This document shows positions 11,301-44,074 of a DNA stretch of 64,000 nt, piece after piece (position 1 is the first letter of the stretch; each line of letters begins with the position of its first letter). The stretch lies in the NCBI GenBank assembly GCA_963575745.1, contig CAUYUJ010000015.1:558001-622000 (forward strand). Direction: 5' to 3'. A model generated the notes under the pieces. That model was not told the origin of the DNA and made no database searches. It saw only the letters and a list, made by a program, of their open reading frames with translations. A program made the position numbers and the translations under genes. This stretch comes from Prorocentrum cordatum (lineage: Eukaryota).

Positions 11301-11688
11301 ATTGCCGCTGCACCTAGCCATCACATGCTGAGTGCTGTCGCGGGCGGATTGCGGCCCCCTTTGGGTGGCAGCGGCGACCGGCAGGTGGTGCTTCGATTTC
11401 GGCCACCAGCGGGCCGCGTTCGGCATCCTCGACGCGATCCGGAAGGAGATCGCCTCCTGGAAGGGCCGCCGGCCTGTCTCCAGGCGCGGGGGCGACGAGT
11501 TGTACATGGCCTGCGCCGTGGCCCTGCTCGTCTATACCGACCTCAGGGCCAAGCTGTTCCCTTGGCCGCTCGCCACAGACGCTTCCGAGTCTGGCGGTGG
11601 CACGTGCGTTGCCTGTGGCCTCACGGAGGCAGGGTGGGCTGCTGCGGCATCGGCTGCTGGCCCCCTGCCCTTCCTGGCCCCCGCCAGG

Positions 11689-12620
11689 CTCATCGCGTTC
11701 GAGTTCTTCGGATGCGCTGGGGGCTGGCGGCAAGCCCGCAAGCCCACGACCGCATTGGCGCCACAGTAGTCATCCGCGTCATCTGCGAGAAGGACCCGGC
11801 GGCGCGCGCTGTCTCTCGCCGGGCCTGGCATGGCGGGATCGAGTGGCCCGACATCACCTAGGTCACCCGCGAGATGGTCGCTGGTGTCGGGCGGGCGGCC
11901 CCTGGGGCGACTGGTATTTCGGTTTCGTGGAGCTTGCCCTTCCAGGATTTGTCCGAGCACAGGTCGGCATTGCTGTGGGAGATTCCCAGGTGGCGCGGCT
12001 GCTGGAGCTCGAATTCGGCAGTCTCCCTTGGCTCGACGTCGTCGAGAGCGTCGTCAGCATGACGGCCGAGTCGTGCACGCTGGTCTCCGAAGGGCTCGGC
12101 CGGCACCCTGCCTCCATCGATGCTGCGGGGATCTCGCGAGCTCGCCGCCCCAGGCTCATCTGGTGCAGCTACCCCGTTGGCGACGGGCGCAGGCGGCGCG
12201 CCTCGCCGCTCTTCGACGCCATCGAGCTTGAGGCGGAGGTGGAGCCCACGGAGATTTGGATGCTCCCTGATGGCTGCCGGGATTTGGGGTCGTCTGCGAG
12301 GCCCCCGGCATTCACCCGGGCCGCCCCCAGAATGGCGCCGCCCCCAGCCCCCGCGGGCCTGCGAGAGTGCAAGGCCCACGAGAGGGCGAGGTGGGCGGCG
12401 GACGAGTACCGCTTCTCCCCGTTCACCTACCAGGACGCCTGCACGTTGGCGTCGGCGGAGGGCGGCTGGCGCGTGCTGCAGGCGCCGGAGAGGGAAGTGC
12501 CCATAGGGATCTGGCCCGGGCACACAGAGCCCGCTCGGCCGAGCTCAGCGCGCGCCGACGACACCGCGTGGCGCGCCCTCCTTGGGGGCAGTCTTCACGT
12601 GGGCGTCGTCGCGTGGCTCC
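11689..12620 (+). pseudogene. C5 cytosine DNA methyltransferase domain of the DIRS element, frameshifted
   Basis: Motif I EFFGCAGG, II CEKDP, III PDIT, IV remnant GACP/QDLS, VI ESVVSM, VIII RRPRLIW, IX RE..IG..PGHT, X LLGGS. Confidence 0.8.
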
Positions 12621-12743
12621 TCGGGCAGGGCCTGCAGGCGGCGGGCCTCGTCGAAGCCCCGCCCACGGCCCCCGAGATCCAACGAGCCTTCTGCAAGGAA
12701 CTCGCTGCTCGAGCCCGCGGCGAAAGGCCTCGGACGGCGCCCC

Positions 12744-12976
12744 ACTTTAAGGGTAGCTCTTTGGGAGATGTTATAGAGGATCGGGAGTATAGCCCGCGCG
12801 CCGTTGCCTTCGGCTCAAGGCACGCACGCCCTGTTTGCCCGGACACTGCGAGTGTTCGCTATGTGCTGGAAAGATCATTACATCGATCTTATCCTATCTT
12901 ATCCGTCCACTCCCCATACCGAACCAACACAGCATGGCATTGGACGCTATTTGGTTTACCATAGTCATTTCAGATT
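12744..12976 (+). repeat. 5' LTR (233 bp)
   Basis: Aligns without gaps to 28610-28842; I count 10 substitutions, all transitions. Confidence 0.93.
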
Positions 12977-12991
12977 TGGTAGCGGGGCTGG
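12977..12991 (+). promoter_or_regulatory. Primer-binding site, probably for initiator tRNA-Met
   Basis: TGGTAGCGGGGCTGG abuts the LTR and is complementary to a tRNA 3' end ...CCCCGCUACCA; it shares TGGTAGCG with the yeast Ty1 PBS. Confidence 0.75.
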
Positions 12992-13369
12992 CCGCACTCT
13001 CGCGTGGTCAGTTCTTGCTCTTCTTATCCTCACGCTATCCGGCACGATCTTCGTGACCAACTACCACCCTGCGCCACCACTCCAACTACATTTACGATGA
13101 TCAATTCAAGAGCACGAAGCAACACGAGAGGTACGACGTCTAGACAACAACATTGGTACCATATACGCTTCATCACTACGCTACTACCAACCGCTCGGCA
13201 ACGAGCCAAAAGCGCAGTACTTGAAGCAGAGGCGGGGAGACCCGCAAGATAAAGCGCCTCGTAGACTTGACAAGGCGCTACAAGCCCTACCCCAGCGCGG
13301 CAACGCGCCCGATAACCACCCATATCTTCACAACCTTGGGTTGGTTATCTTCGCCATCATACGGTCTGC

Positions 13370-14745
13370 GCTGGGGGCAGCAATCGGACACATGCGCCGA
13401 GGAGACAATAGCACAGATGGGCAAACACATGGCCCATACTGGGACCCTCCAGGCAACGCACCTTTCCGCGAATACGTTTATGAGGTCAACGCGTGGCTTA
13501 ACGTCACAATCGGACGCATGACGCCACAGGCCCAAGCAGCCGCCATACAACGCGGCCTGGGTGGCCTAGCGAGGACACCTCGCCATGAGGGTACCACTTG
13601 ACATTATAAACTATGGTGCGGAAATCGATGATGTCCATTGATGGCCACACCGACCCAGCAACCTACACTATGTTCTTCTTAAGCATGAAGTTCGAACGCC
13701 TGGAAGATGAGCGCCAGCTCACTTCAGGCACGCAGCTCATCGACTTGCATGTGCCTCACGGAGAACGAATCGATGTAACCCTCACTCGGTTTGAGATGGC
13801 CCGTCCTGAGGCACAGTCGGCGGGGCTTGACCTTCCCAACTTCCAACTGCGCACTACTATCCTATTCCGCGCCCTAGGCGTTGGCAACCAGCGAGCCACG
13901 CAACTCTTACAGCCACTCAACCACCAAATGCCCCGACACACAACAACAGTATGATGAGTTGTGAGAGGATGCGTTCGATAGGCCATCTGTCAGAACGGCC
14001 TCCTGGCAACATAGGATCAGTGCTTGGAAGGGGAAGGGAAACTGGCAGTGGAAATTTCTATACTACCTTAACCACTGAAGCTCAGCCTGGCAACGGGCCC
14101 TCAAGCATATGGGCCGACGATCCTGGAGAGTCTACTGCCCTACTAACAGGGGATCGATCACAACCAAGCTGGGCAACCAGCCCTCCTCCTAGAGAACCTC
14201 AACCACACCGTTCCCTAAGGGGTGAGGCGAATCCCCTAAACGACGGCGTATCCACCTACCTAGGTAATGACGATTTCGACTCCGGCACCGACACCGATAC
14301 CATATCATCAGATGGTATCGAACCCCTAGATTGGTCAGATACCATGCAAATGGAAGGGGACAATCAGCGTGCCGAACACCTGTTCTGGTATTACAACAGG
14401 CAAAGCGGAGGTGGAGGAGGTTCACACGAAAACCGGTGCGTCGTGTTAGGAGGAGGATACGGAGGAGCTTCAAAGGAAAAGGTAAAGGCAAACGGGGTCG
14501 CCGCAGGTTGAATGGACGAGGCATCTCGGCTTTCCTCCAGAGGCTTTCAGATGATCGGTATGATGAGATATTTTTGCGGGGGGAAAGGCCGTGGGAAAGG
14601 CCGTAGGGATACCCCAGGCAAAGGTAAAGGTAGGCGGGGAAGCCCGCGAGGTAGAGACGGCCAGATCCTAAAGTGCCACGAGTGTGATAGTACCGATCAT
14701 CTTGTACAGGATTGTCCAGCGAAGGGAAATGGAAAGGGCACATCG
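13370..14745 (+). pseudogene. gag: Copia gag-like region, frameshifted, with CCHC zinc knuckle at 14674-14715
   Basis: PYWDPPGNAPFREYVYEVNAW N-terminal block, GKG-rich basic tract, and CHECDSTDHLVQDC (CX2CX4HX4C). Confidence 0.8.
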
Positions 14746-14768
14746 ACCGAAGTCCATTTCGGCTCAAG
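14746..14768 (+). other. DinoSL-like relic inside the Copia element
   Basis: ACCGAAGTCCATTTCGGCTCAAG versus ACCGTAGCCATTTTGGCTCAAG: 2 substitutions and 1 insertion. Confidence 0.65.
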
Positions 14769-17433
14769 TGAACCATCTATTGAAGATCTGAGCCTCCAAG
14801 ATTTCAAGGCTGTGGAACAGGTATTTTTCACTTGGGCTAGCAGTATGGACAATTTGGACGAGCTCGAGGCGTACGGCCATGGACTGTACGCGTACTACCT
14901 CGAGTACCTCCGCAGGTTTGTTCTCGGAAATATCGAGCTTACGCCTGTGGAGAATGGAACGCTGGGAAACCAGCCCTTATCTTTCTTCGACTGGATGTTC
15001 GGTAACCCAGGCAACATCATTGCCTACGAGAGCAGCGACGAGGAGATCACTCTTGAGGCCTCGCCTTCGGAGGTTGACCAAAATCTTCGACATCAACCCG
15101 ACCTTATGCCTGGAAACAGGCCCACTCCAGTATATCCTCCAAATTATGGTGATCTGATGGAATTAGAGTCTCAAGCATTCACCGTGGGCGTGCCAGGGAA
15201 CCCATACGTACCACCTGGCATGCTCGCTCCAGGCGAGTACGGACCGCACGCGATACTGCAGACTCATGCAGATGCACGCTGTACTGGTCGTAGCATATCC
15301 CGAGAGTCAAGAGAGTGTCGAGAGTGGCCACATGATGCTACAAGACACCGATGCCTGTGACGACTCGGAGTTAGTGCTAGCGGCCCTCACTCTCATTGAC
15401 AGCGTGCACCCTGAGGACGTGCAACGACATGCGTGGTGTTCCAGGGGGAGATTGGCGCCAAGCCCTCGAAAGGGCCATCTCCATGCGCGGTCAGGCTCTC
15501 CCTCCGCCGGGATGGGGTCTCCAGGCGGCGGGATTACAGCCCCACCACACGGCCATGCGAATTGTTATCGGGCAGCCTACACATGACTATGATCATTTCG
15601 AGGTGCACGCTATGCTCGGTAACGAGCCTGAGCCGACTACCGTGCCGCCGACGCCGGGACAGCCAAGCGATGCTCAGACGCTTGTACAGCAGGGAAACCT
15701 GCCCGTCCCGACTGGACCAATGACCGCCGTCATTGGCAATCCTATGTCAGAAGATGAAGAGGGTGATGGATGTGGGATGTGCGAGGACGAGACCACCATC
15801 CTCATGATGGAAGTCAATGGTGAAGACGAGGAGGTGGATTTCAGCCCCGACAGTCCTGACACACCACCACCCGCACAAGAGCCAATTATGCCAGACTCCA
15901 GTCAGCAGGGAGACCTGCCTGCCCAAGATGCGCCGCCTGCGGCCCCGCAGGAAACCCCGCCGGCTCCTGCTCAGGCTACGTCGGCGGCATCATCTGATGA
16001 ACATGCCAGGAGGTCTCGCTCGCATCCACGCCTTAGGGACGACCCTCACCCTCAAGCACGGTTCCCACGCGAATGGAGGCAAGCAGCCCCATCAGAGCAT
16101 GCCTCTCGACGAGGGGGTCAGTTGCTCGCCTACAACGACCCTAGGCGTCAAGCGGGTGAGCATTCTGCTTTTGGAAAAGGCAACCCAGCCTACAGGGATG
16201 CCCAAGGCAGGCCCATCCGGGGGGCAACCAGCTCGCGACGAACATTCGTCGTCCTGAGATAGAGGCAGTACGGACTCAGCTGCGGACCATCATTGCGGCA
16301 CGCAAGCTCTACAGGCCCAACGCAGTCTGCGGTCCGTGCTCAGAGCCATTCCAGGAACACAGGCCTGGGTGTCCTGTAGGTCTCAACGAGGGCTTGAGCC
16401 CGAATAGAGGCCGCACTCCTGCTAAGGAGGGTCATCCACCGTTGGTTCCTATGACTCAAGCAGAGATCGACGAGATCAACCGTCGTCTCGGAACCACGGC
16501 TCACAGGAGCCCTATGGCCGAGGAGGTCCAGCCTCCGAGGGGACTTGTGTCTATGACCCAGGAAAAGAAAGATGCGTTCAATCGTCTTCCTGGAATGCGG
16601 GGAAACCCGCCTGGCGTCTCCAGTCAGGCCCACCAGCCAGAGATGATGGATGACGATGAACAGAAGGCTCAGCGAGCCGCGGCAGATGCGGAGCGCAGGC
16701 GAGTGGCAGACGAACGCACCCGCGAGGCAACTCGCCAAATGCTGCTGGAGCCACAAAAGATCTATATGAAGGGGGCAAGGAAGCCCCCACTCCAACCGAA
16801 GGCCAAGAGCGAAACACGTGCACCCAGGACGCCTTCGGGGGAGAGACAGAAACGTCGGCCCGCTCAGAGGAACTCGGGTTAGATGTGCAGATGGAGAGGC
16901 CCCTTTCGGAAGTGCCGAAGTCACCGACTCGTGCAGCTCTTGCGCAGAGACCCGACTCTAGGCAACAACCTCAGGACTCCGTGGAGATCCGCAGACGACA
17001 GCCTAGCCGCAGCGGCTCTATCGCTGGCAAGGCCAAGGCTTTCGAGCGCACAGGGTTTACTCCTACGCCGGCCTCGCCTGTGGCGACACGCTCCAAGAGG
17101 TCTGAGGAAGGCGCTCTATCTAGGGGCACCTGGGTGCCTAAGATCAAGGGCAGCGCCAGTCGAGAAACACTGCGGGGAAACCCGCCAGGCGCTGCAGCTG
17201 CAGCATCCTCCTCCTCAGGAGCCGCAGCCTCCTCGGTGACAGAGGCTCCTTTGCGGGGAAACCCGCCAGAGGATAAGCTGCATCACCCAGAGGATACTTC
17301 CTTTACTAGCGGGAGTCAGGCGTTAATCAGTGATCGGCGTGCCCTGCGGAATCTTCCACCGATACGCTCGGTGGATGAGGCATTCATGGAGAGCTGCAGG
17401 CAGAAAGGTGTTGTTCCGAGAGGTAATCATACA

Positions 17434-18172
17434 CTCCAGCAGCTTAGTAAATGCCTCAACAGGATCTGCAGACACGCGCCTGACAGACCACACAATGCAG
17501 CGTGGAGCCTTGAGACGTTCGACGATCATGATGGATGGATCAATCTCGATGAGCTCGTACGCGAGTTTCCGCGGCACAACGGACGTACGAGACAGGACGG
17601 GCACAACCCGAGACTGGATGAGGCCAAGATCATCGCCGAGACCTCCTACGACAGAACGGTTGACCAGATGGCTGCCATCATGATGGCGATCGTCCGCGTC
17701 CGCGAGTCGGACGGTGAAGAGAAGCAGCGTCTGCAGTTCAAGGTCCTGGTGCGGGATTCTGGCAAATCCGACATATTCATCCGTGCCTCGCAAGAGCACT
17801 CGTGGACGCTCAAGGCCCCTTGGTCGTTGTACAAGTACATTGTACTGCGCGACAATCCTGCCGGGAGACCGGCCCCATGCCCCGAGGTTGCCATGCACGG
17901 CGCACGATGGATGGCCTCTGAGGGCCTTTCTTGTCGCAAAGAACACAACACCAAGAAGAGAGGGACTGGCCGGTCACACATCCACTTTGTTCCAACGCTT
18001 CGTCGTCGCGGCGTGCAGAGTGGATGGGACCCCGACTCCGAGATCGTTATCTTTGTGGACTGGCACCAAGTCCTGAAGGACGGGATCGAATTTTGCCGGT
18101 CCGACAATGGGGTTCTCCTATCAGAAGGAAAAGACGGCAGGCACTATTGAGCCGTATTATATTACACACGTG
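17434..18172 (+). CDS. TPT1: Tpt1/KptA-like NAD+-dependent RNA 2'-phosphotransferase domain (in ORF 16885-18150; tail frameshifted into 18107-18697)
   Basis: LSKCLNRICRH, DGWINLDEL, KQRLQF, IRASQEHS, MHG, EGL, RSHIHF, SG, IFVD, FCRSDNGVLLSEGKDG and GTIEPYY occur in canonical order. Confidence 0.85.
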
Positions 18173-19765
18173 GAAGAATTTTCCACGGGAAAGCAAAGGC
18201 GGAACCCAGAATATCTGGGCAATCGCCTTGCACGCGTCCCCACTGCCATAATGACGGCCCCGAGCAGGTGGAACACTGTGGGCAGTGCTAGTATCAAGCA
18301 CAGATGGTCTCTTGACCGAGAGGCTAATGAGCCTCATACGGTTCATGGTCAAAGAGAGGTAGGAGACCATTACAGCCCAACAGCGCTGGGAAACAAGCCC
18401 GAGATCCACCAGATCCTCATGATCAACGAGAGTGAGGCAGGAAGCGCGGCTCCAAGCCGTGCTCCAAGCCAAGGGCCTAGTGCCATATCTTGGCAGGTCC
18501 TCAGCACCTCAGATTTGGATCAGATCGCGGCTGCTCTAAATCCTGAGCAGGTGGAACAGCTAGCGGACAGACTGTACCAGCAAGATCCCTGGGCCGCAGG
18601 TCAGGGAGCTATGTCCGCCATGGTGACGCGTAACCGCCAGGCCATGCAGGGAAACCTGCCCGTTCATGGATTCAGAAACGACATGCCCGAACCGTAGGGA
18701 GACCCGCAAACGTTCGGCCGCATCTTCGGAGAGCCTGCTCGATTCGAGCAGATGCCAGGGAGCCCCTCGCATAGCATGCACACACCGAGGGGCATGACCC
18801 CAGTGGCGACACCACCAGCACAGTCTCCGTTCGGGACCCCTGGTCGGTCTGCCACGCATGGCATTCTCATGGAGCGGATCGCCGCGGCCAGAGCTGAGCA
18901 TGGCACAGCTCTTCTGAACATGATGCCACCTGGCACGCCAACGAGTCTGCAGGGAAACCTGCCCGGCACTCCAGTACACCACCGACCTTTTGCTGGCCAA
19001 TCTACTGCTGCTGGAGTGCCTGATGACTACCGCGCAAGGGTGGCAGCTGCGGTACAACAGGTGCAGAGTCACAACCTTCCCCACCCGAGCGGTCAGAGGT
19101 GGAGGCCAGCCTGGTCCTGGGAGCCAGAGGGCCCGAACCCACGTCACCCTGCTCGGCAACGAGCCTTTTTTATCCCGGCCTTCAATGCTCATCCGAGCAT
19201 GGCTCAGGGCCAGAGGCCAGCGCCATCACCAATGGATCCGCCACTGTACCCAGATGGGTCTAGAGTCCCGAACAGATTTGTTCGCGAGACGGCGGATCAG
19301 CTTCATAGCCTCACGAATGTGCGCTGCAGTGATCAGTCCATGCATCCGCACATGGCTTTCATGGCTGCACCGACAACGCCAGAGGTGGCCGTCCAGCCCA
19401 CTGCCCATTCGATATCATCAGGCAGTAGGGGAGTACCAGACTACATCAGGCAGACGTACCACACTCAAGAGGCGTGTTTTAGGCGCAGGCAGGCAGTACA
19501 GAGCGTACGTGACCAAGCACGTGCAGCCGCACTTGAGGTCGTGAGGAACAGAGGCTCACCCATGCGAGGAAACTCGCCAGCCGTGTCGCCCGCAGCCTCC
19601 ACAACGGCAGCTCCTCCAGCAGTGGTTGCCGTAGCGCCGGAGGTACTGGCTCCCGCAGGAGATCCTCCAGCTGCTTTCCTGGGCTCCGAAACAGTCCTGG
19701 AGCAGCAGCGGCGGGTGTACCCTAGGGCGGCAGACGTGGAAATCTACACTGGGATGGAAGACACC

Positions 19766-19924
19766 TGCGCGGCATGCCTCGAGGAGTTTCGTCCGAGGGA
19801 GAGCATTTACCGCTTGAGGTGCAACCATCTGTTCCACGAGGAGTGCTGGAACTCGAATGTGGTGGGCCATGCTGCGAATCAGCGAGAAGGAGATCCTCGG
19901 CAACCAGTATGTGCTATCTGCCGA
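19766..19924 (+). CDS. RING-H2 (C3H2C3) zinc finger within ORF 18752-20803
   Basis: CAACLEEFRPRESIYRLRCNHLFHEECW...CAICR. Confidence 0.9.
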
Positions 19925-20809
19925 GCGCCAGGCATCATAGCGCCATCGTTTCCATGGACCAGCTCTTTCACTCAGGCCCCCGAACAGGCAGCGAGGGAGC
20001 TGCGGGAGTTGAGGAGCATGGTGGAGGACATGATAGCCAGTATGCTGGACAGGCAGACAGCACAGTCCCAACAGCGGGGAAACCCGCCGGAGGAGGTGAG
20101 GACGCCGATGGAGACGGGATACTTCGACCAGCCTATCCCGATGACGGCGCCACAGCAGGAAAACCTACCTAATACCCCACCTGCGTCGATTCCTCCAACT
20201 CATTACGAGCCTGGAGTCGGGCAGGTTGCTCCTCCAATGTCACCCCGAGGTGGGGGTGGGACCGAGCTTCCAATAGACCCTGAACAGCTTCGAGAACTGC
20301 GTGCTCGCCGCTTCCAGACCCAGATGGAGAATGCGCACACCACGTTCATGCTGGACGCCGATAATCCTGAGAGCGAGTTGTTTGATCTCTCAGATTCTTC
20401 AGTGGTGACAGCGGCAACAGCAGTCAGGGCCGTCGAGCTCTCAGCAACGAACTATGAGTTCGACGAGCGGTTGCAATACAGGGATCACCTTACGAATGAG
20501 GGATTACAGGACATCACCCTTCATTCGTACTTGACGCTGACGCGGCGCACTACCCGCGAACAGTACACGAGCATACGCGATGAGCATGCCAACTGGCGGG
20601 AGGAACAGGGCGCTCAAGCCCAGAACGTGCCGCACTTCCAGTACATCGACCTGGCACGTATGGCCGCAGGAAGGCCAGGTGCCAGCACGACGCGGGGAAA
20701 CCCGCCAAGGAGCACGACCGAGATGCGGGGAAACCCGCCAGACAGCGCAGCCGGCACTTCAGAGACAGTGCACATCAAGCAGCCTAGTAAGACCTTTTCT
20801 TGAGGATGG

Positions 20810-21240
20810 TGGAAACTCAATCCTCATAGACGCGGGCTCGAAGAGTAACATAATGGGAGAAAATACGAGCCGCAAATTCGTCCAGGCTGCTGAGGCACAT
20901 AATCGTCCTTGTACGTTTGAACCTCGTTCTCGTTTGAACATCAACGGGGTATGCGAGGGGTCGGCCCCAGCTGATACCGCGGGCACCTTCAGCATTGCCT
21001 GCGAGTACCAGGGTTCGACCCAGCTCGACTCGTACAAGACTAATATTGTGTCAGGCTGTGGCAAGGACCTGCCAGCTATCCTGGGCCTCGACAGTATGCA
21101 GGACAAGCGCGCTATCATTGTGCTCGAACGAGGCCAGGAGAAGCTGACATTCCCTGGGAAGGGACAGGTCAAGATGGAACTCCCCGAGGGCTTCAAGACC
21201 ATGCCGACAACGAAGTTGCCATCAGGACATATGTCAATCA
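20810..21240 (+). CDS. Retroviral-type aspartic protease domain (ORF 20580-21722)
   Basis: ILIDAGSKSNIMG catalytic motif, flap-like INGVCEG, and ILGLDSM. Confidence 0.8.
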
Positions 21241-23111
21241 GGCGTGATCGATTCGGAGCCGCGGGGCAACCCGCCTCGAGCACAAGTACAACATCGTTCC
21301 AGACGGTGCTGACAGGCGAGCCGCCCCCTGCGCAAGAGCGCCAACAAGTGCAGGGATACCTGCCTCAGGGGTTGCTCGCGACGCTCGCCATGGCGACGAT
21401 GAGAGGCGACAGCATCGATGATCTGGAGACGTTCGATTGCTTCGTAGCCAGGACACTGGCCCAGCATGGCGGACTTGCACCCATGGATGCTGCGCGGCCC
21501 CGCCGGAAGATAGTGATGGGATACACGAACCATGAGCTGCAGACGGTCAACGACGCAAGGTCGAAAGGCCCATTGAAGCAGTTGGTGGATAATCCATCCA
21601 TGCTGGCCGCATTTGCGGGGCAATCCGCCTCTGAGGCTACCGCGCGCTGCAGTGCTAAGCTCCAGCATCTGAGGGAAGCCCAGATGCTGGCAGACGTTGC
21701 AGGCGCATCTTCTTTATCTTGAAGATGGCAGGGCGACGCTGGCCTTTCGTCGCCTTGCCTGATAGCCGAAAGGCCAGGGGGTAACAAGGACAGCGGGGCA
21801 ACCTGCCACAGTAAAAGAGCTTTCGTCATCGAAGATGCGAGAGAGGCTTGCGCTGACCTCCGTACCCGAGGTTATATTTGTGATCGCATTTCCCACAATA
21901 AGCTCATGACGACTGTGGGCACAGATTAACTGGGTGCGGTGATCAGTGGGGGCTATACTCCAATATGGGTCAGTACCCCGGCTGACTGGTACGTACGAAC
22001 CCCAGGACAGAGAGTAGCCCCACACTGGTCGCGCATTCAAAACCTTCTGACAAAGGCCAAGAAGCTCCGCATGAAAATTATAGCGTTTGGCCCCCCAGGA
22101 TACGTTTGGAAGTTATCCCCAAAACGTGATACTCTGGAAGATCTTAAGTTGACGGTAGTACGGATGCGGTTATGTCATTTCGGTATTATGTTTAATATGC
22201 AAGACAATACACCGAGTGGTACCTATATGCAGGTAGCCACATCAATACCGATCAGCTCTAAGTTGTGGGCATGTACGTGCAAACTGGCGATACCACAACA
22301 TGTGTTGGATTGGTACGGCCAAACGGTACGACATGCAGAATGGCGAGCCCAGACACGCATCACACTTATCCGTCACCTCAACGACAAAATCCTGGGAAGC
22401 AACACTACGCACGGAAACGTGCCGATATACTTGAACACCTATACACGTACGGATCACAACATACATCACTATGTGACGACCAATAAAGGAGGACCGAAAT
22501 GGTCTGATGTCATCCGACGTGTAACGACCAACCTGGGTACCAATGCGATTATTCAGGATATCGCAGTAGCCGATCAACCAACAGGATATGATTGGCATGC
22601 ACGACTACCTACAGGGATTGCCAACATCAGTACACGGATGCACTGGCAGCCCGAGGAACCGGTCATGCTCGGAAACGAGCCTACTCAATCACCACAGAAA
22701 CCCAGACGCGTCATCATAGATGACTGCCCCTCTCCCCTCCCGACTCTGGCGATTGAAGCAGGTACCCACTCATCCACGACGATGGGCGCACAGACTGGTG
22801 AACAAGACGAGCAAGTCTTACCTACGGAGTCGCGTATCAAACAGAAGCAAAGGCTCAAAGCCGAAAAGGAGGCAGGCATCAAGCCTCGCCGCATCAAAAA
22901 GCACGTTGAAGATGGAAACGATGATTGCGGTGACGACTTGTCAGGACTCGGACAGGATCTCATGGCGACCTGGAGCACTGACGTCCCTGTCGAGCTGATA
23001 AGCTCAGATGAGGAAGATGACCTGTTCCTTACCCTCCCCACATCTATGCCCGACACACACGCGGACATATATAGCATAGTAGCTACTCTATGCTATGGTC
23101 ACAATAATTGC

Positions 23112-23745
23112 GTGGATATGTTGGAGCTTTGCGGGGGTGAGGGTGGTATTTCAGAGCTTGCCTTCTCAAGGGGCTTCTCCTCAGGAGGCAACTTAGACAA
23201 GACAACATGCGTCGACCTGGGAGATCCCTCGGTGCAGCGAGCTGTAGACCACTACTTCGCAGCATGCCACGTACGAGTAGCCATACTACAGCCCAGTTGC
23301 CGCACCACAGGACCACCATCCTACTACAACTACAAAGCCAACCATAACACTTGGGAACAGCATCATAAAGAAGATTTGTCACACATAACTTATTGTGGCA
23401 AAATAGCTGTTACTCAAGATAATGCACGGAGGTGGTTTATACGCGAACAACCCACAGGAACATGGGTGGATGATATTTCCCCATGGAAAGAACTTGCCAA
23501 CCGACCACATATCACAACCGTACGCATCGACCAATGTGCGACGGGACTTAAAGATACGGCTGGTGACTATATCAAGAGGCCGACAAATATCACCAGCAAC
23601 GACGAGACGATTCTTGAACCCTTTGAGCGACTCAAATGCAACGGTCAGCATGCGCACGCACAACCGTGCAACAGGGAGCTTTCACTGGCACAAAAATACA
23701 CTCGACGACTGCAGTCTGCCTTTGTGGAAGCCGTCTATTTGGCGA
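23112..23745 (+). CDS. Divergent C5-DNA-methyltransferase-like domain (in ORF 21939-23945)
   Basis: MLELCGGEGG (motif I-like), LQPSC (IV-like), REQP (VI-like), DQCATGL..KRPT, CNGQHAH, AQKY. Confidence 0.6.
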
Positions 23746-23898
23746 AAGCCATCGACACCACGCGCGGAGACGCGCCTACACGCACTGCGCATGCTTACCC
23801 TGCTGACCTTCCTGATCAAGCTGAACCAGGAGAAGGTATGAGACGCATCGGCGATCGTAGCATCCCAAAAGTGGCTACATGCCCAGCATGCATCGACA

Positions 23899-26271
23899 AT
23901 GTCCGAAAGGACAGTCCCAGCCACAACAGAGATCCTACACAGTGAAGGTATCATAACTCTATCTCTGTATACTGGCCATGTAAGGGACCCTACGAGAAGC
24001 AATGGTGTTAAGAACCACCTCGACACTGAGCCCGGCAAATGCCGTTTTGCCGAGCCGTTCAAACTCCCAGATGATCATGACCCCGAGGGCCGCAATGCGC
24101 CAGCTTGGTGGAAACCCTTACCCAGGCCTGGGGAGGGCCAAGCTTCGGCATCGGGTGGCCGTCAGGGCGCTCACGCCAGGCCACCGCGACCACGAGCCTT
24201 TGGGAACACTGATCCTACATCTGGCGCCAGCAGTTACGACATACTGCGAGACGCGCCCGAGCGTGGAAACACGCCCTCCGCGTCTTCAGGCGAGCCGCCA
24301 CAAGTAGCGGCCCGCCGCGGTCGCCTACAAGGCGTACCACCACCACCAGATACAGTTGACGAAGGAGACCGACTGCGGAGAGCCACGAGGAACCCTCTTA
24401 CCTCAGACGGGTCGGGGGCTCCACGACTGCCCGACTGGGCGAGATTTGACATCCAACACAGTCTGCAAAACCTCCGTAGTCACGAACCTCACGTAGTCAA
24501 AAAGGAACTCCGTAAACTGCACTTACGGTGGCATCATGCGAAGGAACCCAAGATGAGGCTGATCCTAGACAAAGTGGGATTGCACAACGTTCGATTAAAT
24601 ATGTTCGAAGAAATCTGTGACACATGTCGGGAATGTAGAGCATGGGAACGTCCAGGTAATTCTACGCTACCTTCCATAAGCCTTCCTGGAAATTGGCTTG
24701 ACGAAGGCGAAGTAGATCTCATGTTTTACAGGCAACGAACCATATTTCATATTATGGACCGACGCATCCGCCTGGCAGCAGGCCAAAAGATTTCTGATAG
24801 AGAACGTGACACTATACTCGACGCCTACCACTACTGCTGGATTGCCCATCATGGACCCTTCAAAGTCTTGTATTCAGATGGAGAAGGCGCCCTCAACAAT
24901 GACACTGCCAAGGCCACGATGGCGAACAAGGGTACGCCACTTCGTATCCGAGCGCCTGGCCAACACGCGATCTCGATCGAGTCACGCAACGGCATTCTTA
25001 GGGGTACTCTCCATATGATTGAGGAAGAACTGAACAGACACAACATCCCTGTTGTATTTACTAGAGTATTTGCTGAAGGCATCTTCGTCACCAACGCTTT
25101 CACGTTTTACCACGGAGCATCGCCATGCCAAGCACACACTGGGCGACAGCCCTCCTTTCTTCCTGACCTCGACACCCTTAACTTCCCTAAGGGACCCGAG
25201 ACGTCAGGCCACGAACGAGAACGCCGCGTGAGGGAAGTTAGCCTGGAAGCAATAACTCAAGCAACGGCGGTAGCTGAGACAAATCGTGCTCTCAGGGCTA
25301 AGACGGCCCCAGATGGTGCTCGCCTTTACTCAGCAGGGGACTCGGTCGACTATCACCGACCTACAGCCACTAAGGACGACCATGGAGGCTGGAATGGCCC
25401 GTTTCCTGTGATCCGTAACGTGCCTGAACGAGGACACGTCGTCGTCAAGGCAGGATCACGCGAGGTAATTGCAATGTACCCTGAAGCTTGCCACACGCTA
25501 TACATTGAATGCCTCCTTGCCGGGGAACTTGGCATGGACAACATGGCCATGCAAACCGTCCTTACATATGTGGCACACCTTGGCGCAGGGAAACCTGCCA
25601 AAGTCTTTGGCTATATTCCAGACTACAAGGGAAACCTCAATCTTTTGGACGACAGCAAGTTCCACCCGCGCGTGCATCTTGCACTGCAGTATCTCGTGCG
25701 AAATTATTTCCGAGTTGAACGTGTCGTAGCCGTGAGATTGGCCAAGAACGTGTCAAATTTACCCGCAGTAAAGTACGCCACCGGGTCTACACTCATCCAC
25801 TACGACAACGATGTTAACCCAGCCTTCCACTATTATGAGTGTGGGGGCACCGGCCTGAACATCTCTCAAAACACTGGTAGCACTCACTCCAGACTCATCC
25901 AGTGCCTGACGTCACAAGTTCCTTCCCTAGGAGTTCATGATGACCTTGCCAAGTATCAGCACTTGGGCACAACGTCTGGAGAACACGACCAGCCTGGAGA
26001 CACGCCTCCACCAGACACCCCAGGTGCTTCATCACCAAGTGAGGGTCGCCTGTCTACAATCTACGAAGACAGCGAGGAACATGACATCGAGGCTATGATG
26101 ATGGAGGAGTGGTACGATGAGTTACGTATGGACCTTCATCCCGCAACGGTTATCAACGATCATCTCTACTGCGTCCCAACAACTATGCTGCCCGACCAAT
26201 GTGTTTTGGTCTCAGCATCCGTGGACGAGGAAGATACCGTAGTGTCGGAGATGCTCGGAGACGAGCCTTAA
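23899..26271 (+). CDS. Integrase (HHCC zinc finger plus DDE core); ends in an in-frame TAA before RT
   Basis: LHLRWHHA...CRECRAW; VDLMFY, YSDGEG, IESRNGIL; WNGPFPV. Confidence 0.88.
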   Translation: MSERTVPATTEILHSEGIITLSLYTGHVRDPTRSNGVKNHLDTEPGKCRFAEPFKLPDDHDPEGRNAPAWWKPLPRPGEGQASASGGRQGAHARPPRPRAFGNTDPTSGASSYDILRDAPERGNTPSASSGEPPQVAARRGRLQGVPPPPDTVDEGDRLRRATRNPLTSDGSGAPRLPDWARFDIQHSLQNLRSHEPHVVKKELRKLHLRWHHAKEPKMRLILDKVGLHNVRLNMFEEICDTCRECRAWERPGNSTLPSISLPGNWLDEGEVDLMFYRQRTIFHIMDRRIRLAAGQKISDRERDTILDAYHYCWIAHHGPFKVLYSDGEGALNNDTAKATMANKGTPLRIRAPGQHAISIESRNGILRGTLHMIEEELNRHNIPVVFTRVFAEGIFVTNAFTFYHGASPCQAHTGRQPSFLPDLDTLNFPKGPETSGHERERRVREVSLEAITQATAVAETNRALRAKTAPDGARLYSAGDSVDYHRPTATKDDHGGWNGPFPVIRNVPERGHVVVKAGSREVIAMYPEACHTLYIECLLAGELGMDNMAMQTVLTYVAHLGAGKPAKVFGYIPDYKGNLNLLDDSKFHPRVHLALQYLVRNYFRVERVVAVRLAKNVSNLPAVKYATGSTLIHYDNDVNPAFHYYECGGTGLNISQNTGSTHSRLIQCLTSQVPSLGVHDDLAKYQHLGTTSGEHDQPGDTPPPDTPGASSPSEGRLSTIYEDSEEHDIEAMMMEEWYDELRMDLHPATVINDHLYCVPTTMLPDQCVLVSASVDEEDTVVSEMLGDEP

Positions 26272-26379
26272 TTACAAGAGCCTTGTCTTATCTCTCTATG
26301 CTCGACTACACCTGACGAGGGAAATTCTCTTGACAGTGATGAACATGGTCCTTATGTTGAGTTTTGTTTCACACCAGAA

Positions 26380-28215
26380 ATGTTAGTGGTAGTGTTGGAT
26401 CAGACCCAACTTGCACATTTTGAAACTGACATGGTCGCAACGATGAGAGCATATGTATCATCGGCTGCTAAACGTGCTGCGGTAGTCAAGGAAGACGACC
26501 TACTCACCGAAGCCGATATAGCAGCACACCCTAAAGAGGTTAGTGAAGTTTTGTACACCGAACTCAAGATCTGGCTTGACAACCGGTGCTTTGAGATGTA
26601 TGACCTATCTAAAGCTTCCAACATCATGACATCCAGATATGTATACAAGTGGAAGTTCGTGAAGGTAGGAACCGAGAACGTTAACACCATCCGTCTCAGA
26701 CTTGTCCTTCGCGGATTCATGGACACGGAGGCGTTCGATGTAGAAACCTTCTCAGGAACTGCTCGAAGACAGTCCCAGAGGCTCCTGGCAAGGGAGGCGG
26801 CATGTCATCCAGAATGGATCTTAGCATCTATGGATATCGACAAAGCGTTCCTCAAAGGTCTGACCTATGAGGAACTTGCTCATGCCACCGGCGAGGAAAC
26901 TCGCATGGTTTGCTTCACTCTTCCACCAGGAAGTGCCCATGTGCTTCGTGCACTACCAGGCTTCTCTTCTTACGATGAAAGCCGACACTGCCTCAGGTGC
27001 CTCAAGCCAGGAACGGGTACAAAGGACGCCCCAAGAGCGTTCTCCCTCAAGCTTCGTACGACTACACGAGCTAGAGGCCTCACACCGACAAGTTATGATC
27101 CTGAGTTTGAATTCAGTCAGGATCTGTTAGCGGCAAAACATGTCGACGATATCAACATGACAGGCCTAGAGAAAAACGTAGATGACTATGTACAACGTGT
27201 CGAACAGGTGTTTGGTAAAAGCAAGCTCAACAAACATTATTATACGAACTGCGCCGTTCGCTACACTAAGAAAAAACGAGGGGATGTGAGCATGGATCAG
27301 GACGAGTACATTAAACAACTACGTCCTACCACACACCCTGAGCTTACGGGAGCGGCGGCCGACGCCAAAGCTACCAAACTCATCACCGACATGTTCGCTA
27401 GCCTGCGAGAAGCTCTCGCCTATGCCCTTCTTACTCCAGTCTGGCTTATGGTGCACGTGGTCTCTCTCCAGAAGATCCAAGAGCCCACCAACTTACAAGT
27501 CAGACGACTGAATGCTGTGACGCGAAAGCTGATCAGCAGCCCGAAACGCATCACCTTCCCTCGGATGAAACCGACGAATGAAGTAGACATACACAGTGAT
27601 TCGGGGTATCGGAAGCTCACTGGGGAGGAGGACGATGAGACCAAGGGCTACGGCATTCGTGGGGCTAACGTATTACGGCGAGGAAACTCGCCTCAAGGCA
27701 AATCCGTCACTCACCTTTGCGACGGACGATGCAAATCACACCGACTGCAGGTGAGGTCCAGCTATGCCGCTGAGGCACCTGCAGCTGCACACAATCTTGA
27801 TGAATGTTATCCCACGCTCATCACTCTCCACGAGCTCAAGGCAGGGGCACTTGCTCCACGACAACTACGAGATATGCGTGAAGTTGGAGGCCCAGCTATT
27901 CAAGTATCCCTTACTATAGACGCTGAGTCTGTATACAAATCGCTATCCAGCAAAGATCTTAAGTTACCGACGGAACGGACTTTGCTGGGACATATCAGCT
28001 GGATACGTGAGCTCATGGATATAGGTATAGTGCATAACGCACAGTGGTGTAATATTAGAGACATGACCGCAGATGGGCATACAAAGGGGAGTATCAATCG
28101 GGAGCTGCTTTTGGAAGTGATGTCAGGCACTCAGTCATTTAAGTATGACGTGAAGCAGTTTGTTCCCTTTCGGGGTCCTGAGGACAGAAGTAAGCCTAAG
28201 TCGAATCAGTTTTAG
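26380..28215 (+). CDS. pol: Copia-type reverse transcriptase and RNase H
   Basis: SRYVYKWK, RLRLVLRGF, DIDKAFL, LKPGTGTKDAPRAF, HVDD; RNase H HSDS, SSYAAE, IDAESV, ADGHTK. Confidence 0.93.
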   Translation: MLVVVLDQTQLAHFETDMVATMRAYVSSAAKRAAVVKEDDLLTEADIAAHPKEVSEVLYTELKIWLDNRCFEMYDLSKASNIMTSRYVYKWKFVKVGTENVNTIRLRLVLRGFMDTEAFDVETFSGTARRQSQRLLAREAACHPEWILASMDIDKAFLKGLTYEELAHATGEETRMVCFTLPPGSAHVLRALPGFSSYDESRHCLRCLKPGTGTKDAPRAFSLKLRTTTRARGLTPTSYDPEFEFSQDLLAAKHVDDINMTGLEKNVDDYVQRVEQVFGKSKLNKHYYTNCAVRYTKKKRGDVSMDQDEYIKQLRPTTHPELTGAAADAKATKLITDMFASLREALAYALLTPVWLMVHVVSLQKIQEPTNLQVRRLNAVTRKLISSPKRITFPRMKPTNEVDIHSDSGYRKLTGEEDDETKGYGIRGANVLRRGNSPQGKSVTHLCDGRCKSHRLQVRSSYAAEAPAAAHNLDECYPTLITLHELKAGALAPRQLRDMREVGGPAIQVSLTIDAESVYKSLSSKDLKLPTERTLLGHISWIRELMDIGIVHNAQWCNIRDMTADGHTKGSINRELLLEVMSGTQSFKYDVKQFVPFRGPEDRSKPKSNQF

Positions 28216-28609
28216 TCTGTCCTTGTTGCCCCCCGCGGTCCAGTTTACCAGCACGGGCGCCTAATACAGAGGCGCCATCCTAGCTGCTCGGAAACGAGCC
28301 CTACTTTTCACGCTTGGCAACGAGCCTGTTCAGATTGATTCAGGCTATTTGCTTTATTACCTTTTGCCTGGAGAGGAATAGCCTGTTTGGCTTACCTCTA
28401 GCCGGGCCGACAGCCCTTTTGATGTCAAATGGGCTATCCTGCGCATGTGTGAAAGTGTTTTGCGTGGAAATTCGCCGGCGAAAAATTTCGCCCTACAGTC
28501 TGGTGTTAGGCCAGACTGTGCGCATTGTTTTTCTTGCAAACAGTTGCGCGCGCGGCCTTTCTAGAGCCTGACGGCTGCGCGGCTATACTCTCCGTCTCCT
28601 CCCCACCCG

Positions 28610-28842
28610 ACTTCAAGGGTAGCTCTTTGGGAGATGTTATAGAGGATCGGGAGTATAGCCCGCGCGCCGTTGCCTTTGGCTCAAGGCACGCGCGCCCTAT
28701 TTGCCCGGACACTGCGAGTGTTCGCTACGTGCTGGAAAGATCATTACATCGATCTTATCCTATCTTATCCGTCCATTCCCCATACTGAACCAACACAGCA
28801 TGGCATTGGACGCTATTTGATTTATCATAGTCATTTCAGACT
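28610..28842 (+). repeat. 3' LTR (233 bp)
   Basis: Direct repeat of 12744-12976, followed by GCCCC. Confidence 0.93.
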
Positions 28843-28847
28843 GCCCC

Positions 28848-29450
28848 CCCTCTTAAGGGGCCGAGTCGCCGTGGCCCCGCGCGAGGGCTTTGAGGCCCCC
28901 GGGGCCAGCGGGCGGGCCTCCGCATGCGCCCAGGGCGATAGGGTAGAACACGAGGGCGAAATTACCCTATCGCCCCCCGCTTCCGCCGGGGCCGCCGCGA
29001 ACGAGCTGTCGGCAGCGCGGGCCATTGTTTATGGTCTCCTGCGACATGCCGATCACTGCGGCTCGGACTTTCGGCTAGACACAGGTCTGCCGTTCCGGGC
29101 CAAGGTGTGGCCTCGAGCCCCAATTTCTTCAGACCGATGGGCGTGGCAGACGGTGCTCGCCCATGGATGGAAGGGGCAAGGGCGGCACATCTACGAATTG
29201 GAGATGCAGGAAGTGTTGGAGGCACTGAAATGGTTCGCTCGGAAGGCGGATCGGCACCACTCGCGCCTCGGCATTCCCATCGACTCCCAGGTGGTCCTCT
29301 CGGTGTGCGCGAAGGGGAGGTCCTCGTCGCGAAGGCTGAACCACCTGGTTCAGCGCATAGACGCACAGATTATCGCATGTAACCTCTACCCCTTCTACGG
29401 CTACGTGACCAGCAAGATGAACCCTGCGGATGCCCCCTCGCGACAGCGCG
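28848..29450 (+). pseudogene. C-terminal part of DIRS pol: second half of RNase H
   Basis: HIYELEM, IDSQVVL..AKGRSSS and YVTSKMNPADAPSR; the first catalytic motif ATDASESGGG is at ~11572-11601. Confidence 0.82.
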
Positions 29451-29619
29451 AGCGTGGGCGTCCGCCAGACCCCTCCGAGGAGGTTTGCGCAGCGCCCCCA
29501 GGTCGGCCTTCCGAGGCCCCGGGTAGGCTCGCTGTCCGACACGGGCGGCTGAGCGACCTGCCAGTGGCGCGCTCCAGACCAGTCGGCGGGGCAGTGCAGG
29601 TCTGTTGATGACGCCGTAA

Positions 29620-30430
29620 ATGATTCTACCTAGCTGTAGAAGGGAGGCAAGGGCCAGCGCCCGTTTGGCACTCGGCCGCTTGGAGGATCAGGTCGTTAAA
29701 CCGGCCACCCTCCGACGCTACCGGGCGCAGGTGGAAGCTTTCCGTGCTTGGCAGAGGTCAGAGCAGGAGCCCCCTGACGATCCCGACGACACTGATCAGA
29801 GTGCAATGGAGTACCTCGAAAAGCTTTGGGCCGAAGGTGAGCCTAAAAGCTACGCCAACGATCTGGTGGCAGGGCTCCAGCACTTTGCCCCGCGCCTCCG
29901 CCGAAGGCTCAACGGAAGCTGGAGGCTGTTGGGCGCGTGGGCTAAAGCTGAGCTCCCGGCTCGAGCCCCCACCATGCCGCGTGCCGTCGCCATAGGGCTG
30001 ACTGGCTACGTTGCGGCAATGCATAACTTTGCCGTGGGGGTGGTGTGGCTCGTCGGATTCCATTGTTTTCTCAGGTCAGGGGAGATGTTCGGCATCCGCG
30101 CGCGCGACGTCTCGTTCGCGCGGGACTACAGTTCAGCCGTCATCAACCTGGGCCTCACCAAGACTGGGAAGCGCCAAGGTGCTTCTGAGAGCGTCACGGT
30201 CTGGGACGGTGTGGTCCTCGCAGCCCTCCGAAGCTTGGTGCAGAAGCGGAGGCCCGGCGAGCTGCTGGCCCCCCTTTCGGGACCGGGCCAGCGAGCGCTG
30301 TTCAAAAAAGCTCGCAAAGAGCTGGGCCTCCGCGACCACGAACTTAGCCTCTACAGTTTCTGGCGGGGTGGCGCCACCCACGATTTCGGGTACCACGGCC
30401 TACTGTGGAAGGCCAGCGCTAGGGTGTGGG
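29620..30430 (+). pseudogene. DIRS tyrosine recombinase, C-terminus apparently degenerate
   Basis: FHCFLRSGE, KTGKRQG, YSFWRGGAT; no clear GRW...Y catalytic end; the ORF then runs into a microsatellite. Confidence 0.82.
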
Positions 30431-30566
30431 CCTTTCTCTGGGCCCGCGTCGGAGGCCCCCGCCCTGAGGGCTGGGTTGGGCCTTCGCCGCCCTGTTCCGG
30501 CGCATGGCTTCCTTGGCACTTTGTCTGCCGCTGGCCATTCGAAAAAAAGAGCACACGGGCACGACA

Positions 30567-30611
30567 TCCACATACATATACATATACATATACATATACC
30601 TACACCTACAC

Positions 30612-30648
<37 letters not shown>

Positions 30649-31283
30649 TATACATATACATATACATACACATATGCATGTACATATACATATGCATGTA
30701 AACATGCTTGCATACACATGTTCATCTACAAACACCTATGCGCAGACAAAGACATGTACTCATACCTCTACACATATATATATATATATATATATATATG
30801 ACTATGGATGCGGCGGCGGCAGTGGATAAGGAGCGTCTTCCAGGGGCCCAGACCCTGGCGCATTCCTTCTTGTTTCAGGGAGAGATGTGTGGTCCACGTT
30901 TGGCTGCCCATCGGTCGCGAGACCCTGGTTTCCTTATCGAAGGTATCCTTATCGAAAACCTCCACCGTATACAAGTGCACATGCATAAACATATACATAT
31001 ACACATACACGTACATATACACCTACGTATACACCTACACATAAACATACATATACGTATATGTACACACATACACGTACATGCACATGTGCGTCTACAT
31101 ACATCTACACATAGTATACATACACATGCATATACATGTTCATGTACATGTATACCAGTTCATACATACACATACACATAAACATACAAGTATGTATAAA
31201 TATGTACGTACATGTACTCATACATTTACGTACACCATATATGTAGACATATACATATATGTACACATAACATACACATGCAT
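30567..31283. repeat. (TACATA/TACACA)n and (TA)n low-complexity tracts
   Basis: Direct inspection; interrupted by unique sequence at ~30800-30965. Confidence 0.85.
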
Positions 31284-43000: not shown

Positions 43001-44074
43001 CATATGGCCGGGCATCGTCGCTTGGACGAGTCGTGTTTCAAGCCAATCGTCAGCCAGAGAACGCACGAGACCAGCAAAGGAGACAAGGGCGTCGAGGCCT
43101 CTGAGATTGCCATCGCTTCTGCCCGAAGCCCAGGTCTCGATTTCACCGCGAAAGGCGCGCAGAAAATCACCGTCTTCGAACAACCACTGTGGAATGGGAG
43201 CGTCCACCTTGATGCGTCTCTGTCGCCTCCGTCTGTGACGACTGACCGTGCGACACTCCAAGGGCAAGTGATCTGAGGCGAAAGGGCAAGGCACGTCCTG
43301 CCGGCACACCGCTACTGACGCATGGCGCGACAACACGTCCAAAGAAGTGCACACGAAGTCCAAAGTTTCACGAACGTAATTAATAGTGCCATCTCTTCGC
43401 TTCCCTTGTCGTCGATATGTGTGCTCTGGCTGATCGACGTGGTAAACGCCAATGCTGTTAAGCCAGGAGCGCCACGCATCGAGCATCCTCGCGCCAGGGT
43501 GCCAGCTCCCGGGCTCAGAGTTATCTTGTTCTCCTTCTGACGCCTTGAAGTTCTTGTCGCCTCCAGCGACAACATCAATAGGCGTATCTGGGTGTCCCGC
43601 ACGAAAATCGCAAAACCAGGATGTGATGCCCTGGAGTTGCTGCACGCGCCGTGCGTTGCAGTGCGAGTCGAGATACACATTCATAATCAACCTAATGCGG
43701 CCGGCCTCCATCCACGAAACAGCGTGTCAGTGGCCATCCGGAAGCACGCGATGATGATTCGGCGAGCGACCGTTGGCATCATCCTCAACAACGCCCCGCT
43801 TTTGCGCGAAGGCTTTGTCAATGGATATTGCCAGACCTGGCCGACCTACGCCGGAAACTATAAAAGTAACACGGCCAGGGACATGCGAGAAAAAACTACT
43901 CTCCGCAACGGCGGAAGAGCACCGAACTTCCTGCAAGCATATAAAGGTGTTATGCGTAAGATGCCTGAAATTCCGAAGTTTGCTTTCGAACCGTTCGCGC
44001 CTAGACAGGCCCAAATGGTTTATGTTCCAAAATGCGGTTCGCGGGAGGGGGGGGTGCGGGGGAGGCGCAGCCAT
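40017..44074 (-). pseudogene. LINE ORF2: AP endonuclease, RT, CCHC finger, RNase H (in-frame stops at ~43727 and ~42380, frameshift at ~41050)
   Basis: AFWNIN, CLQEV, NVY, GGDKN, LDFV, SDH; PGPDG, QQAF, GLRQGDPVS, FCDD, LLGI; CLLC..EDSIEH...C; SDGAARG, NNAAEY, VDS, HIYREFNALAD. Confidence 0.9.

Follow-up and report, generated by a model that had tools for sequence, protein, structure and literature searches.

The 64,000-nucleotide (nt) stretch of contig CAUYUJ010000015.1 analysed here (positions 558,001 to 622,000 of the forward strand; hereafter the window, with position 1 at its first letter) carries a genuine, full-length domain of the RNA 2'-phosphotransferase Tpt1/KptA. Its carrier is a Ty1/copia-type long terminal repeat (LTR) retrotransposon of 16.1 kilobases (kb). 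We favour the reading that Tpt1 is an integral, long-resident accessory domain of a multi-copy retrotransposon family, most likely active in intact copies, where it would clear 2'-phosphates; we give this reading a probability of about one-half, and the clearing of 2'-phosphates by itself a lower one.

An earlier annotation of this DNA (the original prediction) had named a Tpt1 domain with candidates for an Arg-His-Arg-Arg catalytic tetrad and an SxNGVxL motif, carried as cargo by an LTR retrotransposon, and had proposed a profile search and a structure prediction as checks. Both agree with it.

17437-18129, + strand: Tpt1/KptA domain (Pfam envelope; the N-terminal extension begins near 17380)

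The Pfam search placed PTS_2-RNA (PF01885) on residues 260-490 (nt 17437-18129) of a frame that is open for 496 codons under the standard code (16660-18150), with 76.5 bits (cut-off 26; E 3.5e-21), over the whole profile (positions 4-177/177). A sequence search of the PDB with the Tpt1 segment returned human and mouse TRPT1 (7yw3, E 6.3e-9; 7yw2, E 2.7e-7). An AlphaFold model of the 256-residue segment 17380-18150, with a 71-row alignment as input, reached a mean predicted local distance difference test score (pLDDT) of 82.6 and a predicted template modelling score (pTM) of 0.75. The model has the two-lobe Tpt1 fold: in a Foldseek comparison with the PDB, all 21 matches at E <= 0.001 were Tpt1/KptA structures, led by 7yw3 (E 1.6e-10, template modelling (TM) score 0.62 by target), and the next match lay at E 0.39.

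All the predicted motifs were located where the original prediction had put them: ICRH (17464-17475), KQR(L) (17722-17733), IRASQEHS (17779-17802), MHGA (17893-17904), GRSHIHF (17968-17988) and SDNGVLL (18100-18120). Measured against a reference alignment of 60 canonical Tpt1 sequences, in which a conserved column is one conserved at >= 85%, the window copy keeps 30 of 34 conserved columns, all four tetrad positions among them. Within the 256-residue segment the tetrad comprises R31-H32 (ICRH), R117 (KQR) and R198 (GRSHIHF), in columns conserved at 94%, 94%, 97% and 100%; we take these to be R23, H24, R71 and R138 in yeast numbering. The near-invariant motifs QGHS, HGT and SGMR are not kept and read QEHS, HGA and SGWD in the window, the last with Asp at a position that is Arg in 97% of canonical sequences.

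The element around the domain consists of the following parts.

12739-12743, + strand: left target-site duplication GCCCC (repeated after the right LTR)
12744-12976, + strand: 5' LTR, 233 nt (direct repeat)
12977-12991, + strand: primer-binding site TGGTAGCGGGGCTGG, directly abutting the 5' LTR
13101-15360, + strand: gag-like region with broken frames (open frames)
14674-14715, + strand: CCHC zinc knuckle, motif CHECDSTDHLVQDC
19760-19924, + strand: RING finger in the polyprotein (zf-RING_11, E 2.9e-7, 30.5 bits, cut-off 27)
20541-21722, + strand: protease-like region, LIDAGS at 20823-20840 (by motif and position only)
21930-23945, + strand: open region of 671 residues between the protease-like and integrase-like parts (open frame)
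23842-26271, + strand: integrase-like region, HHCC at 24520-24636, with D, D and E candidates at 24712-24726, 24871-24888 and 24970-24987
26272-28215, + strand: Ty1/copia-type reverse transcriptase (RT), HVDD at 27139-27150 (RVT_2, E 1.1e-8)
28610-28842, + strand: 3' LTR (direct repeat)
28843-28847, + strand: right target-site duplication GCCCC (sequence)

The LTRs are identical at 223 of 233 positions and flanked on both sides by the 5-base-pair (bp) duplication, and Tpt1 lies inside them, as had been claimed. On the + strand the order is gag knuckle, linkers, Tpt1, RING, LIDAGS, 671-residue region, integrase-like region and RVT_2 (35.4 bits against a cut-off of 31.6), with integrase motifs ahead of an RVT_2 RT; this arrangement is of Ty1/copia type. 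About 2.7 kb of low-complexity linkers lie between the gag knuckle and Tpt1, which shares one long frame with the linkers on its flanks. The domain is thus cargo within the element's polyprotein frame. Its predicted position between gag and protease stands by motif (CCHC and LIDAGS) and does not extend to profile matches: zinc-knuckle families score 20.4 and 18.1 bits in the gag-like region, under their 27-bit cut-offs, and the protease-like region has no Pfam match even at E <= 10.

The integrase-like region also has no Pfam match (E <= 10), and we recognised an RNase H-like tail after the RT by eye. The last 30 bases ahead of the 3' LTR are rich in pyrimidines on the + strand, with no clear polypurine tract seen. 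The complement of the primer-binding site (a tRNA 3' end of ...CCCCGCUACCA, A1:U72 type) points to an initiator tRNA-Met-like primer. We found no second copy of the element and no tRNA genes in the window. The RING finger is a second non-canonical domain, about 550 codons downstream of Tpt1, and three other RING models match at 19760-19924 below their cut-offs. No Pfam family above cut-off and no PDB sequence match was found for the 671-residue region, whose single-sequence fold has a pLDDT of 31.4; a DNA methyltransferase (DNMT)-like reading of 23037-23945, suggested by eye from ELCGGEGG, QPSC and REQPTG, proved unsupported (no Pfam match at E <= 10, no PDB match).

An array of small hairpins runs through the whole element and through Tpt1 with it.

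13193-28326, + strand: 40 copies of the 15-nt hairpin GCNNG-GNRA-CNNGC-C, 29 perfect and 11 with one violation

All 40 copies are on the + strand of the element; there are none on its - strand, none on the + strand outside it and two on the - strand elsewhere. On the window's + strand a 14-nt pattern (GC-NN-G, GNRA, C-N'N'-GC) is present at 37 sites. Of these, 36 fall inside the element, for which 0.24 are expected under a first-order Markov model. Watson-Crick pairing holds for both free stem pairs in 31 of the 36 (chance 1/16), in 10 pair combinations, and the loops are GAAA (20), GCAA (9), GAGA (6) and GTAA (1). The hairpins are spaced 432 nt apart on average and have RNA fold energies of -7.0 to -9.3 kcal/mol; when each is folded within 94 nt of context, 21 of 29 persist in the minimum-energy structure. 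The motif matches no Rfam family. The array is a structural signal confined to one strand, carried by the genomic RNA or by plus-strand DNA.

Most of the 36 sites (28) share one codon phase, mostly in linkers, and the sites at 17860 (in Tpt1), 25585 (in the integrase region) and 26891 (in RT) are in different phases. In protein the motif surfaces as RGNPP, QGNLP or LGNEP (23 matches against 1.2 expected from shuffles). We considered RGNPP/QGNLP as a protease cleavage site and rejected it: the residues on either side vary together in pairs with complementary codons (R/P, Q/L, L/E, H/V and others), which identifies a nucleotide hairpin. With one hairpin inside the Tpt1 domain (17860) and four flanking it (17172, 17253, 18385 and 18646), the domain appears to have resided in the element for a long time. 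One perfect 15-nt copy outside the element, at 11485 on the - strand, may be a remnant of a related, oppositely oriented element.

Short GNRA-type hairpins are bound by arginine-rich or zinc-knuckle peptides in the lambda boxB-N system and the HIV-1 psi stem-loops, and single-stranded RNA viruses have dispersed packaging signals. Set beside these, the element's hairpins have 5-bp GC-rich stems and 4-nt purine-rich loops and are spread over the genome RNA. By analogy, our guess is that they act as dispersed gag-binding or packaging signals. The literature we searched held no comparable hairpin array in a retrotransposon.

The element has many other copies. We placed contigs from four public runs, belonging to four studies and one of them possibly the source sample, on 12600-29000 at a likeness of >= 80%. 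The runs yielded 11719, 12346, 2196 and 2366 contigs on the element, with 30 of 30 depth bins covered in each; depth was counted per contig and is not a measure of copy number. Likeness to the window ranges from above 99% to below 90%, and among the contigs listed, some cross the 3' border of Tpt1 in two runs (18019-18269 in X1, 18060-18400 in X2). In some contigs of all four runs, 18661-18733, which includes a TAG stop of the window copy, is replaced by 10 other letters. One X3 contig joins both LTRs (12918/28799), which is a solo-LTR form, and contigs of X1 and X3 lead out of the 3' LTR and return into the 5' LTR (28709/12855), as in tandem or circular forms.

Ten protein fragments derived from other copies have 71-89% identity with the Tpt1 segment; those named are P0001, P0002, P0004 to P0007, P0017, P0151 and P0152. 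P0151 starts in the C lobe and extends to the linker downstream, past the point where the window is frameshifted. P0004 fuses 27 residues of the element's integrase region (96% identical, 25549-25629) directly to the middle of the Tpt1 segment (17536-17760); its source copy is thus rearranged, or recombined by template switching. P0005 has Tyr for His in the RH pair, P0002 has HIL for HIH, and P0006, P0007 and P0017 change frame relative to the window. Since some fragments are broken or mutated in this way, decayed copies are common.

Beyond these close relatives lies a deeper subfamily. An insertion of about 10 residues (GLSCxxEHN...) before the last catalytic Arg (R-x-H-x-H) is found in P0003, P0012, P0013, P0014, P0031, P0038 and P0071, and five of these seven distant sequences have 30-48% identity with the window. 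A quick maximum-likelihood tree of 65 rows, from which the short fragments P0152, P0001, P0002, P0006, P0007 and P0014 were left out and in which P0012, P0013 and P0031 have long branches, puts 7 of 7 insertion-bearing rows on one side of a branch and 58 canonical rows on the other, with a Shimodaira-Hasegawa-like approximate likelihood ratio test (SH-aLRT) value of 98. Of 29 columns conserved in canonical Tpt1, P0003 retains 26 and P0013 retains 23, with overall identities to the window of 44% and 34%. A predicted catalytic core kept at only 34-44% overall identity indicates purifying selection on that core. Two other distant Tpt1 relatives are fusions: P0075 (1700 residues) combines SPRY, tRNA-ligase kinase and phosphodiesterase parts with Tpt1, and P0093 (933 residues) is an SPX-RING-Tpt1 protein.

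The original prediction would have fallen to a single copy in neutral decay, the mark of a chance capture. What we found is thousands of contigs in four runs, ten fragments from other copies and a deep subfamily, which removes that objection and speaks against a one-off capture. The identity of the domain and its status as retrotransposon cargo, as originally predicted, both hold.

The LTRs also bear on the host of the element.

12801-12819 and 28667-28685, + strand: spliced-leader-like 19-mer in both LTRs, from LTR base 58

This 19-mer, CCGTTGCCTT[C/T]GGCTCAAG, closely resembles what we take to be the core of the dinoflagellate spliced leader and may be a trans-splice or R-region start copied into the LTR. 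The gapped leader pattern matches these two sites alone in the window and has no match in 100 shuffles; a literature search lists 28 dinoflagellate papers in which the leader core appears. The sequence of the window is repeat-dense with a GC content of 50-73%, and given this together with the 19-mer, the host is probably a dinoflagellate.

We next consider what such a domain could do for a retrotransposon. Tpt1 is established as transferring an internal RNA 2'-phosphate to NAD+, and passages of PMC5824351 report that 2'-phosphates inhibit reverse transcription, which would give the element an interest in clearing them. Tpt1 in intact copies is most likely an active NAD+-dependent phosphotransferase. 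It would be translated within a single gag-to-pol polyprotein. Heal-and-seal ligation after cleavage would leave 2'-phosphates on RNA; Tpt1, within or beside the virus-like particle, would strip them from the genomic RNA or the tRNA primer; and their removal would let the element's RT copy the whole 16-kb template. We infer the activity, the substrate, the release by protease and the particle location of Tpt1. Among the roles we weighed, removal of 2'-phosphates from element RNA or primer ranks highest, as a tentative choice, ahead of 5'-end capping, a host-directed or counter-defence role and a passenger, in that order.

A number of observations weigh against this reading. Some of them concern the state of the window copy, which is a dead relic with private damage to its Tpt1 domain.

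14509, 18695, 21720, 21927 and 26269, + strand: in-frame stops of the element (frame reading)
18128-18226, + strand: frameshifted tail of the Tpt1 segment (alignment with P0151, DNA read)

The coding region 13101-28215 holds 8 frame changes and these 5 in-frame stops in place of an intact reading frame. Within Tpt1, QGHS has become QEHS, where 9 of 9 other subfamily rows covering that column have G. After HGARW the window lacks 5 residues, reading HGARWMASEGLSC (MASEGLSC part) where other copies have HGARWAAFEGI[LM]WVGLSC, and the tail is frameshifted near 18128-18146, with a frame 1 stop at 18148-18150. A shortened segment after MHG and a frameshifted tail had both been claimed, and comparison with other copies bears them out: residues 1-162 of P0151 correspond to frame 1 (17668-18138) and residues 158-190 to frame 2 (18128-18226), and P0151 itself is uninterrupted. 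The three defects are private to the window copy or its near kin. At 13578 and 13937, most or all contigs from other copies lack the one-base shift of the window copy.

Other objections concern the family and the chemistry. HGA, in place of the canonical HGT, is shared by the window, P0002 and P0151, and HGT is kept in P0007 and P0003; HGA and the Arg-to-Asp change in SGMR could alter enzyme activity in the close lineage. The distant subfamily members may or may not lie in retrotransposons. No second full-length copy was recovered that would show gag-Tpt1-RT linkage at another locus or give a ratio of nonsynonymous to synonymous substitution (dN/dS). Searches of viral contigs (with the Tpt1 segment, RT and P0151), genome contigs (with P0151) and phage records gave no second copy, and a metagenome scan found 23 stretches encoding a relative and recovered 0 loci. 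Word-index searches, which make weak evidence, found no long polyprotein gene model among proteins of 449-2000 or 2637-8392 residues, and none of 16 runs was listed as an RNA run carrying the element. The two closest named proteins are labelled green alga in EukProt, at odds with a dinoflagellate host. We know of no step in the LTR-retrotransposon cycle that makes a 2'-phosphate. Pfam scans found no RNA ligase, kinase or cyclic phosphodiesterase domain in the element. A ribozyme or retrozyme, with self-cleavage followed by ligation, was tried as the source and rejected (Rfam: no match in the element at E <= 1 and none in the window at gathering score). Initiator-Met tRNA is usually intronless and would hence carry no splice-junction 2'-phosphate; with an initiator-type primer site, this slightly weakens the idea of primer processing, the first role suggested in the original prediction.

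Three other roles compete with the removal of 2'-phosphates. Tpt1 might instead ADP-ribosylate 5'-phosphate ends, capping element RNA fragments or linear complementary DNA (cDNA) against exonucleases or end-joining into dead-end circles; this was the second role suggested in the original prediction. In its favour, the window domain has the tetrad on which the initial ADP-ribosyl transfer depends, RNase H leaves 5'-phosphates on cDNA ends, and the changes in the lineage (HGA, SGWD and two insertions) could mark a shift of substrate. According to passages of PMC10275265, some Tpt1 enzymes, human TRPT1 included, do ADP-ribosylate RNA or DNA 5'-phosphates; but the activity is limited to some members, the sequence does not tell which, and Pfam scans recognised no macrodomain or hydrolase in the element that would remove such a cap. 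We regard capping as unlikely, if the strongest of the three. Ranked below it is the idea that Tpt1 acts on the host, completing, much as phage T4 does, the repair of host or element RNAs that a host ribonuclease defence has cut, or altering host tRNA or NAD+ metabolism in favour of transposition. In its favour, passages of PMC3230848 place Tpt1/KptA genes in gammabaculoviruses, and the element has a RING finger, another host-directed type of domain; yet neither a defence nuclease nor a ligase partner is known in this case, and the argument would be made by analogy only.

Tpt1 could, finally, be a functionless passenger, a piece of host Tpt1 captured once and copied along with a successful element. 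The decay of the window copy (13 frame breaks and damaged motifs) is what this would predict, as are the frameshifts and mutations in several fragments (P0005, P0002, P0006, P0007 and P0017). Against it, catalytic and structural columns are kept at only 34-44% identity, the subfamily is a well-separated clade with insertions of its own, the element-wide RNA motif arose inside the domain, and a useless 250-residue insert in a polyprotein would be expected to be lost. We consider a passenger improbable, and the removal of 2'-phosphates from element RNA or primer remains the role we prefer.

A functional link between the hairpins and Tpt1 is possible. The boldest form of it, to which we give very little credence, would make the two one RNA-modification system: RNA would be cut and resealed, 2'-phosphorylated or ADP-ribosylated at the hairpins, and Tpt1 would write or erase the mark. 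If true, only the element's own RNA would be packageable and fully copyable, or it would escape a host RNA-targeting defence, and the retroelement would encode a cycle of RNA modification for which no precedent is known.

The window is mostly repeats. The element is inserted in another repeat (11318-12743 and 28848-30800), whose downstream part by eye shows an RNase H-like segment and then a tyrosine-recombinase-like, DIRS-like frame; the frames of this flanking repeat match no Pfam family. A long interspersed nuclear element (LINE)-type element lies at 40017-43726 on the - strand (RVT_1 E 1.9e-11, RVT_3 E 3.3e-8, zf-RVT below cut-off), and a weak KDZ-transposase-like frame, below cut-off, at 50488-52068 on the + strand.

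Compared with known systems, the window domain shares with cellular Tpt1/TRPT1/KptA (7yw3, 7yw2, 6e3a, 8tfz, 9ld6) the fold, the full profile, the LRH-type/KQR/RxHxH tetrad and the SxNGV motif, at 24-26% identity to mammalian TRPT1 in the fold alignment. Unlike cellular Tpt1, which is a free-standing gene, it is a domain of a retrotransposon polyprotein, with an insert of about 45 residues in the N lobe and one of about 10 residues, SCRKEHNTKKRGT, before the last catalytic Arg. Phage T4 is a mobile agent with RNA-repair enzymes of its own (Pnkp/Rnl1), encoded by free-standing genes. Closer in kind is the KptA of the gammabaculoviruses NeleNPV, NeseNPV and NeabNPV, whose function is given as untested in passages of PMC3230848; both are borne by mobile agents, but the baculovirus KptA is a free-standing gene of a DNA virus, whereas the window Tpt1 is a polyprotein domain of a reverse-transcribing element.

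Among retrotransposons, the nearest parallels are DIRS and LINE elements with a DNMT in Symbiodinium and in a charophyte (de Mendoza et al. 2018, PMC5890265); the same study states that the Copia elements of Symbiodinium have no DNMT domain. Like the window element, the DNMT retrotransposons are multi-copy, carry a host-type nucleic-acid enzyme in their coding region and reside in a dinoflagellate (a probable one in our case); they differ in the enzyme, DNMT as against Tpt1, and in element class. The main text of PMC5890265 does not mention Tpt1, KptA or phosphotransferase. The SmTCL1-4 elements of Symbiodinium microadriaticum (Chen et al., PMC5776459), as described in the abstract and main text, are of Ty1/copia type like ours, with LTRs, a 5-bp duplication, a primer site and integrase before an RVT_2 RT. 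SmTCL3 measures about 10 kb against 16.1 kb; the window element has in addition about 6 kb between the gag knuckle and the protease (holding Tpt1 and RING) and about 3 kb of coding sequence between protease and integrase, and the abstract and main text of PMC5776459 hold no such extra domains. In the parts of the literature covered by our searches with domain, family and retroelement terms, there was no Tpt1/KptA domain in a retroelement; in the passages we consulted where such terms stood together, the co-occurrence was unrelated, apart from the KptA genes of gammabaculoviruses. Captured nucleic-acid enzymes in retrotransposons are already known; Tpt1 in an LTR retrotransposon appears to be new.

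The role of Tpt1 outside fungal and plant tRNA splicing is called an open puzzle in passages of PMC10275265. A retrotransposon that keeps Tpt1 through deep divergence would be a natural experiment on that puzzle: the element needs only to have one long RNA reverse-transcribed and integrated, so the choice of substrate narrows to genomic RNA, tRNA primer and cDNA ends. The hairpin array adds a defined cis-signal on a 16-kb retroelement RNA, and the spliced-leader-like 19-mer of the LTRs gives a hint of the way these elements handle trans-splicing. Among the host nucleic-acid enzymes that protist retrotransposons have captured, cytosine methyltransferases were the known case, and Tpt1 adds another.

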